Shown piece by piece: positions 34,816 to 35,126 of a stretch of DNA of 64,000 nucleotides (position 1 is the first letter of the stretch; the number at the start of each line of letters is the position of its first letter). The notes beneath the pieces were generated by a model. It was not told the origin of the DNA and did not search any database. It saw only the letters and a program-made list of their open reading frames with translations. Source of the DNA: a virus (lineage: Duplodnaviria; Caudoviricetes); IMG/VR virus record IMGVR_UViG_3300031857_000007, one strand, 5' to 3'. Both the position numbers and the translations under genes were made by a program.

Positions 34816-35126
34816 TTGTGGTAGGTGTTGAGGACTTTACCTATGTCCCCACTCTTGACATTCACCCAAGCACCAGCAATAAGCATAGACCTGAGGAGAG
34901 GTTTTGGCACCTACGGAACGGTGATGAGTGCCCATCACCAGCGGAAGACACTTTCCGCAATTTTCACTGCATTAGAGGGCAGTGAATAAGAGGTTTCCAG
35001 TAGCCGTTCTTATCTCCCATAAGGAAGATGTAGGTATCGAACCTACAAAGGACAGTCCCTAACGGAACTGCTGGGAATTCCACTCAGAACCAATATGAAA
35101 GAATCGGACATTTCCAATCCTTTCAA
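34816..35126 (-). ncRNA. large multi-helix structured RNA (possibly manA-like or novel)
   Basis: At least eight helices found by hand, a T-loop hairpin and a possible pseudoknot; no credible ORF. Confidence 0.65.

Follow-up and report, generated by a model that had tools for sequence, protein, structure and literature searches.

Comparison of homologous loci shows that the 311 nt following tRNA-Asn in this cyanophage window (the window being the whole stretch of DNA analysed, 64,000 nt) consist of four self-closing RNA modules that stand in a fixed order on the minus strand and that are each independently present or absent. The same comparison shows that the modules and most of their helices have been kept by selection on the tRNA-sense strand. 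Model searches show that the region belongs to no family of Rfam 15 and that it is missing from the marine relatives tested. The first-pass annotation, made from the letters of the DNA, had described these 311 nt as one multi-helix RNA directly downstream of tRNA-Asn. That a structured RNA lies directly 3' of tRNA-Asn was borne out by folding statistics and by covariation among homologues. The single RNA was not, since what it took for one molecule is four autonomous modules that are found apart and recombined in relatives, and a single 311-nt fold was rejected because the modules occur separately in homologues. Since each module has a terminal helix that closes it, the 311 nt are a concatenation and not one tertiary fold. 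We think it fairly probable that this is a conserved non-coding RNA region of a tRNA operon, specific to freshwater T4-like cyanophages, that is, a string of four modules that would be co-transcribed with the tRNAs, released from them by enzymes and used in the manner of decoys or handles. The family would then be a compact and highly modular tRNA-island RNA that includes two conserved tRNA mimics unable to decode.

Genomic setting and distribution

The window is from a T4-like cyanomyovirus, of the family Kyanoviridae going by its nearest relatives, and has 26 tRNA genes on its minus strand. The features discussed are given in Table 1. The tRNA-Gly gene lies one gene 5' of tRNA-Asn and is itself preceded by a promoter-like site, and after the tRNA mimic the gene order is tRNA-Val and then the ferritin/Dps-like gene. 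A Dps gene is found in a matching neighbourhood in Synechococcus phage S-SRM01. DNA of near-identical phages is present in lake and freshwater metagenome runs.

Table 1. Features of the window, and of one related contig (last two lines), with their positions
Feature	Position	Strand	Description
PhotoRC-II RNA	5203-5297		Known cyanophage RNA in the window (Rfam)
wcaG RNA	31152-31252		Known cyanophage RNA in the window (Rfam)
Ferritin/Dps-like gene	34206-34718	-	Pfam Ferritin, E = 7e-22; directly 3' of the tRNA block
Promoter-like site of the ferritin/Dps-like gene	34639-34667		The gene's own site
tRNA mimic	34743-34815	-	Weak tRNA-like element; ARAGORN tRNA-Leu(caa) or tRNA-His(atg); Rfam tRNA 32 bits; 74 contigs
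311-nt region	34816-35126	-	Fills the gap from tRNA-Asn(GUU) to the tRNA mimic
3' module	34821-34914	-	Three-way junction; invariant outer stem GUAGGUG/CACCUAC; 43 contigs
Core hairpins B and C	34920-34958	-	1 nt apart; unit also found without A; 117 contigs
Core hairpin C	34920-34939	-	Loop GGCACU; 5 pairs changed on both sides
Core hairpin B	34941-34958	-	Loop AGUGUC; 3 pairs changed on both sides
Core hairpin A	34964-34985	-	7-bp stem; loop with near-invariant CUCUAA
tRNA-like module (type I)	34992-35091	-	32 distinct sequences; 73 contigs, many without the core
Module P1	35096-35125	-	13-bp hairpin, AAUG loop, conserved apical GGAAAUGUCC; 110 contigs
tRNA-Asn(GUU)	35127-35198	-	Rfam; upstream anchor of the 311-nt region; CCA not encoded
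Promoter-like site, sigma-70 type (TTGACA-17-TATGAT)	35301-35329	-	11/12, by consensus match alone; just 5' of tRNA-Gly(UCC)
abiF RNA motif	37661-37697	-	48 bits; adjoins tRNA-Arg(UCU), head of the tRNA array
Permuted two-piece tmRNA of contig L159	1467-1766	-	In the tRNA array
True manA RNA of contig L159	697-904	-	Between tRNA-Gly(UCC) and tRNA-Val(UAC)

Homologues were collected from IMG/VR by pattern scans anchored on different parts of the region, and the loci were annotated with profile HMMs and ARAGORN. Modules were found in about 180 viral contigs of IMG/VR and in a single isolate, S-SRM01. This freshwater isolate, in which P1, a type II module and the core are present, was also the sole blastn match among 50,697 phage records, and its homologous stretch likewise begins immediately 3' of tRNA-Asn. 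A covariance model of the core gave one copy in S-SRM01, one in a complete 213-kb viral genome and nothing in S-PM2, S-CREM1 and S-SM2. In marine S-SM2 (GU071095; L235, 4463-4610) tRNA-Asn and tRNA-Val are only 4 nt apart, and this junction is an empty site with respect to the element in its entirety. The nearest upstream tRNA is tRNA-Asn for 106 of the 117 contigs that bear hairpins B and C. When 185,579 prokaryote genomes were scanned with a loop-anchored pattern, none proved to have a cellular copy; the matches were scattered, had the wrong spacing and came from unrelated taxa, and for these reasons an origin from the host was rejected. The family is absent from Rfam, and in cyanophage genomes its modules are either unannotated or mis-called as tRNAs for Leu-CAA, His-ATG or Phe-GAA. 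The literature consulted on such phages describes just the RNAs known to Rfam (PMC9964418), and there exists a catalogue of 8,495 candidate structured RNAs from IMG/VR, the entries of which are unnamed (PMC10690425).

Modular architecture

The order along the tRNA-sense strand is tRNA-Asn, P1, the tRNA-like module, (a Y hairpin), X, a type II or type III module, hairpin A, hairpins B-C, the 3' module, the tRNA mimic and the next tRNA, which can be Val, Thr, Leu, Ala or Met, and every one of these elements is optional. The window has P1, the tRNA-like module, A, B-C, the 3' module and the tRNA mimic. In the minimal form tRNA-Asn is followed by 1 nt, the core and the next tRNA, 71-72 nt in all, and among the other forms seen in relatives are P1 with the core, and the tRNA-like module with the tRNA mimic, the core being missing. 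Hairpins B-C occur without hairpin A in two contigs (L172 and L174), and the 3' module of some relatives abuts the tRNA-like module with no core between them. The tRNA-like module is also found in relatives directly 3' of a promoter, of tRNA-Gly or of a protein gene. Such natural presence and absence variants are a ready-made deletion series.

The minimum free energy of the minus strand of 34816-35126 was -114.1 kcal/mol compared to -87.5 +/- 5.7 kcal/mol for shuffled sequences (z = -4.70), and none of the 100 shuffles equalled the native value. No credible ORF was found in the 311 nt. The structure was assigned to the tRNA-sense strand because there are many conserved G-U pairs. All of the minus-strand helices that had been picked out by hand are there in the sequence where they had been placed, and most of them are upheld by the homologues; the exceptions are the helix ATAAGA/TCTTAT and the pseudoknot CATAGG/TCTATG, which are specific to the window and unconserved.

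In P1 the 13-bp helix was paired in 99% of cells, and 6 of its 13 pairs were changed on both sides among 38 distinct sequences. At 3556-3641 (minus strand) of contig L067 the apical motif of P1 (UUGGAAAUGUCCGA) replaces the apex of hairpin 1 in the 3' module, and judging from this swap the P1 apical motif may well be a functional unit that can be transferred.

The tRNA-like module is bounded by the closing stem GGUU/AACC, inside which there come first a hairpin whose loop is UGGAAUU and then a tetraloop hairpin, CAGUUCC/GGGACUG. These are followed by a T arm, GUAGG-UUCGAUA-CCUAC, that continues straight into a 7-bp acceptor-like stem with a G3-U70 wobble, closed by the loop UUAU (35019-35022), and on the 3' side there is a conserved 16-nt single strand containing GG. 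Because UUAU joins the two acceptor strands, the chain enters and leaves the module by way of the closing stem. Among the 32 distinct sequences 4 pairs of the closing stem and 2 pairs of the helix CAGTTCC/GGGACTG were changed on both sides. The T-loop hairpin and the helix ATCTTCC/GGGAGAT were always paired, though they were fixed by the search pattern, and a scan that left the T arm and the acceptor-like stem free returned few variants only. The canonical D-stem pairing GAAC/GUUC was rejected for this module, as its variation is uncompensated, unlike that of GGUU/AACC. The helix ATAAGA/TCTTAT fails on two counts: its 3' strand, which is part of the junction with the core, is missing wherever the tRNA-like module has another neighbour, and the covarying closing stem GGUU/AACC competes with it. 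The discriminator of the module is U and not A. No canonical tRNA (RF00005 at a minimum of 29 bits, with a 7-nt anticodon loop) was found in the 311 nt, which have no anticodon loop.

In the core, hairpins A, B and C were 99.5% paired with 9 pairs changed on both sides in 41 distinct sequences, and 0 of 500 shuffles were as good. For hairpin A further fully compensated stems, CACCGC/GCGGUG and CGCCGU/ACGGCG, were found in relatives. In one contig (L052, IMGVR_UViG_3300047550_000330) hairpin A is inverted with respect to B-C and tRNA-Asn, so that its loop has AUUAGAGGG where CCCUCUAAU would be expected; the stem is palindromic, and a natural inversion seems to have taken place there.

In the 3' module, hairpin 1 is variable and hairpin 2 has an invariant AUAGGUAAA loop. 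The outer helix GTAGGTG/CACCTAC was 100% paired, yet it is invariant, while 5 of the 7 pairs of hairpin 2 (GGGGAC/GTCCTC) and 4 pairs of hairpin 1 were changed on both sides. The pseudoknot that had been proposed for the last hairpin, CATAGG with TCTATG, was paired in 73% and had no covariation. An alternative pairing of GGCACT, the loop of hairpin C, with GGTGCC had also been suggested. GGTGCC is part of the invariant outer stem of the 3' module, and this module is absent from most of the contigs that bear B-C, which is the ground on which we do not adopt that pairing.

The element that adjoins the 311 nt on the 3' side is a second tRNA-shaped structure. It has acceptor, D and T arms, and in place of the anticodon arm there is a mini-arm of 4 bp, which has a bulged A and ends in the pentaloop GACAA. 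The arms covary, 12 pairs being changed on both sides in 29 distinct sequences. This tRNA mimic is the probable RNase P site that sets the 3' end of the 311-nt element.

Transcription, processing and possible function

The reading that we prefer is that a promoter ahead of tRNA-Gly would give a transcript with tRNA-Gly, tRNA-Asn, the element, the tRNA mimic and tRNA-Val. One of the host enzymes RNase Z or RNase E would cut past the discriminator of tRNA-Asn, RNase P would cut at the 5' end of the tRNA mimic, and the region thus released would persist as one or several stable small RNAs, comparable to the stable RNAs C and D of phage T4. The invariant loops CUCUAA, AGUGUC, GGCACU, AUAGGUAAA and GGAAAUGUCC, together with the tRNA-shaped parts, would be its binding surfaces, and these would most plausibly be decoys or handles, the factors that they engage being of host or phage origin and having tRNAs or translation as their target. 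The invariance of the loops and the presence of two tRNA mimics that do not decode suggest recognition by tRNA or translation factors, the decoy role being proposed solely from shape. The modularity could instead mean several unrelated functions, or roles in cis in tRNA maturation.

In freshwater metatranscriptomes from two studies there are contigs of close relatives in which the tRNA-like module, P1 and the core are covered, though the coverage is shallow. One of them spans tRNA-Asn and P1, and it may come from the precursor or from DNA, as carry-over of DNA is possible. These contigs leave 34817-34878 uncovered, and they are uninformative on expression there. The coverage fits transcription within a tRNA precursor and is not proof of it.

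If the modules act in cis they would be aids to the processing or folding of a polycistronic tRNA precursor and be degraded afterwards; they might be insulating spacers, they might recruit RNase P, RNase Z or RNase E, or they might order the cleavages. The modules do always lie between tRNAs and on the same strand, P1 starts 2 nt past the discriminator of tRNA-Asn in 110 contigs, and two of the modules are tRNA-shaped and hence possible substrates of RNase P. However, within the array most tRNAs are separated by 0-5 nt and do without such help, S-SM2 has tRNA-Asn and tRNA-Val adjacent, and invariant loops on covarying stems are typical of recognition surfaces that act in trans and not of spacers. 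We therefore consider that a role in cis has some chance of being right, although a small one.

The loops of the two adjacent core hairpins, AGUGUC of B and GGCACU of C, had been noted as complementary, and it was found that they are so in 108 of 118 contigs, with no compensatory change. Both are nearly invariant, which would by itself keep them complementary. From the geometry of an A-form helix we infer that with the hairpins 1 nt apart a full six-pair kiss inside one molecule is implausible; a partial contact in cis, a kiss between molecules or the separate recognition of each loop may all occur. This leads to the question whether B-C is a device for self-assembly, in which the hairpins are stacked and the loops kiss head to tail between molecules to build dimers, rings or filaments. 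If this were true, the RNA would be a self-assembling ring or filament bearing tRNA-shaped modules. It would be the cyanophage equivalent, in miniature, of the RNA cages that ROOL and GOLLD form; these two RNAs are found near phage tRNA islands and do oligomerise by kissing loops (PMC12286853). In addition to the complementarity itself and the steric argument, a divergent loop pair, AGUGCC/GGUACU, keeps all six pairs by way of two one-sided changes, and B and C are always found together, even where hairpin A is missing. Set against this, the number of loop pairs changed on both sides is zero, all four bases are seen at one loop position, the central pair is lost in the AGCGUC variants, and the invariance of both loops accounts equally well for their complementarity. 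Assembly through B-C thus seems unlikely indeed.

A further explanation is that the modules are debris of tRNA or tmRNA genes, left behind when the array recombined, with parts of genes duplicated or deleted, and having no function of their own. Arrays of tRNA genes are recombination-prone, presence/absence polymorphism is extensive here, and over 24 nt the tRNA-like module, in its T arm plus acceptor 3' strand, is identical to genuine tRNA-Ser(GCU) genes of other phages. But every module is maintained by compensatory changes, the loops are invariant among contigs that have different flanks, and the same modules persist in about 180 contigs. As judged from the covariation this explanation is already disfavoured, and we hold it to be very improbable.

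In the preferred reading the modules would be recognised in trans, and S-SRM01 with its host Synechococcus KCZYC6 is a cultured phage-host pair in which processing, partners and fitness are directly testable.

Comparison with known RNAs

When the 311 nt were searched with the Rfam 15 models, no family matched at E <= 10 but for a 14-bit match of tRNA-Sec (E = 9.5) over the T-loop region. By analogy the best-supported placement is with the T4 stable RNAs C and D as the nearest functional analogues and with GOLLD and ROOL as the nearest in kind. The T4 stable RNAs C and D, also known as species 1 and 2 (rnaC and rnaD), are small structured non-tRNA RNAs of no known function whose genes share cluster and strand with the T4 tRNA genes, and that are thought to be freed from the tRNA precursor by tRNA-processing enzymes. 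The 311-nt region is likewise a non-tRNA RNA on the tRNA strand inside a myovirus tRNA cluster. It differs from the T4 RNAs in being a combinatorial chain of modules of freshwater cyanophages, with two tRNA mimics included, and no sequence homology to rnaC or rnaD was found, as the blastn search of the 50,697 phage records, which presumably include T4, matched S-SRM01 only. GOLLD (RF01998) and ROOL (RF03087) are ornate phage RNAs of unknown function that are often found near tRNA islands, and in GOLLD a conserved part can be told from a variable one, while its linker contains tRNAs (PMC12286853). The 311-nt region shares with them that it is phage-encoded and next to a tRNA island; however, GOLLD and ROOL are each a single fold of 580-800 nt, whereas here there are separable modules of 30-100 nt and no match to the covariance models. 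Phage tRNA islands have repeatedly been seen to hold structured RNAs, T4 RNAs C and D, GOLLD and ROOL among them, the purpose of which has been unexplained for decades.

The tRNA-like module has the topology of the tRNA-like domain of the bacterial Y RNA YrlA (RF02553) and of permuted tmRNA (RF01851, RF04321). It differs from these in having two extra hairpins and no Ro-binding stem. Weak matches of the YrlA model in the window sit on ordinary tRNAs and none on the tRNA-like module, and no Ro60/TROVE or RtcB gene was found in three phage genomes that bear modules of the family.

The order of parts in permuted tmRNA, namely T arm, acceptor 3' strand, loop and acceptor 5' strand, is present in the tRNA-like module, and it can be asked whether this module and the core form a divergent two-piece, circularly permuted tmRNA-like RNA, with the T arm and the acceptor strands carrying G3-U70 in one piece and a stop codon downstream in the loop of hairpin A. 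The window has the G3-U70 wobble, as do 30 of 32 distinct homologues, and hairpin A reads ...F-T-A-L-stop with the UAA in its loop. A related contig of 249 kb from a freshwater cyanophage (L159, IMGVR_UViG_3300035703_000005) was found to have a genuine permuted two-piece tmRNA in its tRNA array. This tmRNA has a promoter directly upstream, a 7-nt loop that joins the acceptor strands and is similarly short, and the tag ANNIVAFSRSKTTALV, which ends in ...TTALV. As a control this tmRNA was detected at 105.8 bits (cyano_tmRNA, the 106-bit match) and at 78.3 bits and was called as permuted tmRNA by ARAGORN. In the window, however, ARAGORN called no tmRNA, and no tmRNA family was among the matches listed at E <= 10, a list that leaves out two weaker matches of the same Rfam clan. 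Homology to the L159 tmRNA was rejected, since a global alignment to it scored 113, no better than the 106 +/- 7 of shuffled sequences. The strand that follows the acceptor 5' strand lacks the conserved UUCGAC analogue of the D loop, and there is neither an A73 nor a tag reading frame. Some homologues have A-U or G-C in place of G3-U70, and the tRNA-like module and the core mostly occur without each other. A tmRNA-like RNA is accordingly highly improbable here.

It had also been suggested that the 3' part may be the tRNA-adjacent cyanophage manA motif. The manA RNA is a structured RNA of T4-like cyanophages, described from the 5' UTRs of protein-coding genes (PMC2864571). When the models of manA and GOLLD were run, as the first-pass annotation had proposed, neither matched: manA and GOLLD gave nothing at E <= 10 in 34600-35300, and manA, GOLLD and ROOL gave nothing at E <= 5 in 31000-38000. 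The gathering threshold of manA (RF01745) is 55.2 bits, at which there was no match in the window, and the same model scored 109.3 bits on L159 as a positive control. The suggestion that manA can adjoin cyanophage tRNAs was sound, since the manA of L159 fills the gap between tRNA-Gly(UCC) and tRNA-Val(UAC) in the same array neighbourhood, but it does not apply to this window, where the helices and the conserved nucleotides differ. The position is not that of a 5' UTR either, as the tRNA mimic and tRNA-Val lie downstream and the dps-like gene has a promoter-like site of its own.

Some relatives (L011, L022, L047, L061 and L071) have as an alternative middle module the type III module, in which a strong Shine-Dalgarno sequence and an AUG open a frame of 18-24 codons that ends at the UAA of the hairpin A loop (...LLFTAL). 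This frame is intact in 5 of 10 distinct variants and is frameshifted or truncated in the other 5. A micropeptide was rejected, the reading frame being unconserved. That the region is a manA-type or other riboswitch-like cis-regulator, or a micropeptide gene, is largely refuted and we give it next to no credence: the L159 manA in the equivalent gap and the type III frame speak for it, but there was no manA match even at permissive thresholds, the sequence is followed by a tRNA mimic and a tRNA and does not lead into an mRNA, the type III module is not in this window, and the 311 nt hold no notable ORF.

Other RNAs in and around the tRNA array

The abiF motif, which has been reported in S-CREM1 too (PMC9964418), may be another small RNA that is carried on the tRNA operon. 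At 36224-36307 on the minus strand there is an extra tRNA-like gene by Rfam (45 bits) without an ARAGORN call. In three related contigs (L001 at 3152-3228, L071 and L075) a promoter of the TTGACA...TATAAT type was found 3' of tRNA-Thr, and it is followed by a structured leader of 60-110 nt that abuts tRNA-Gly(UCC).
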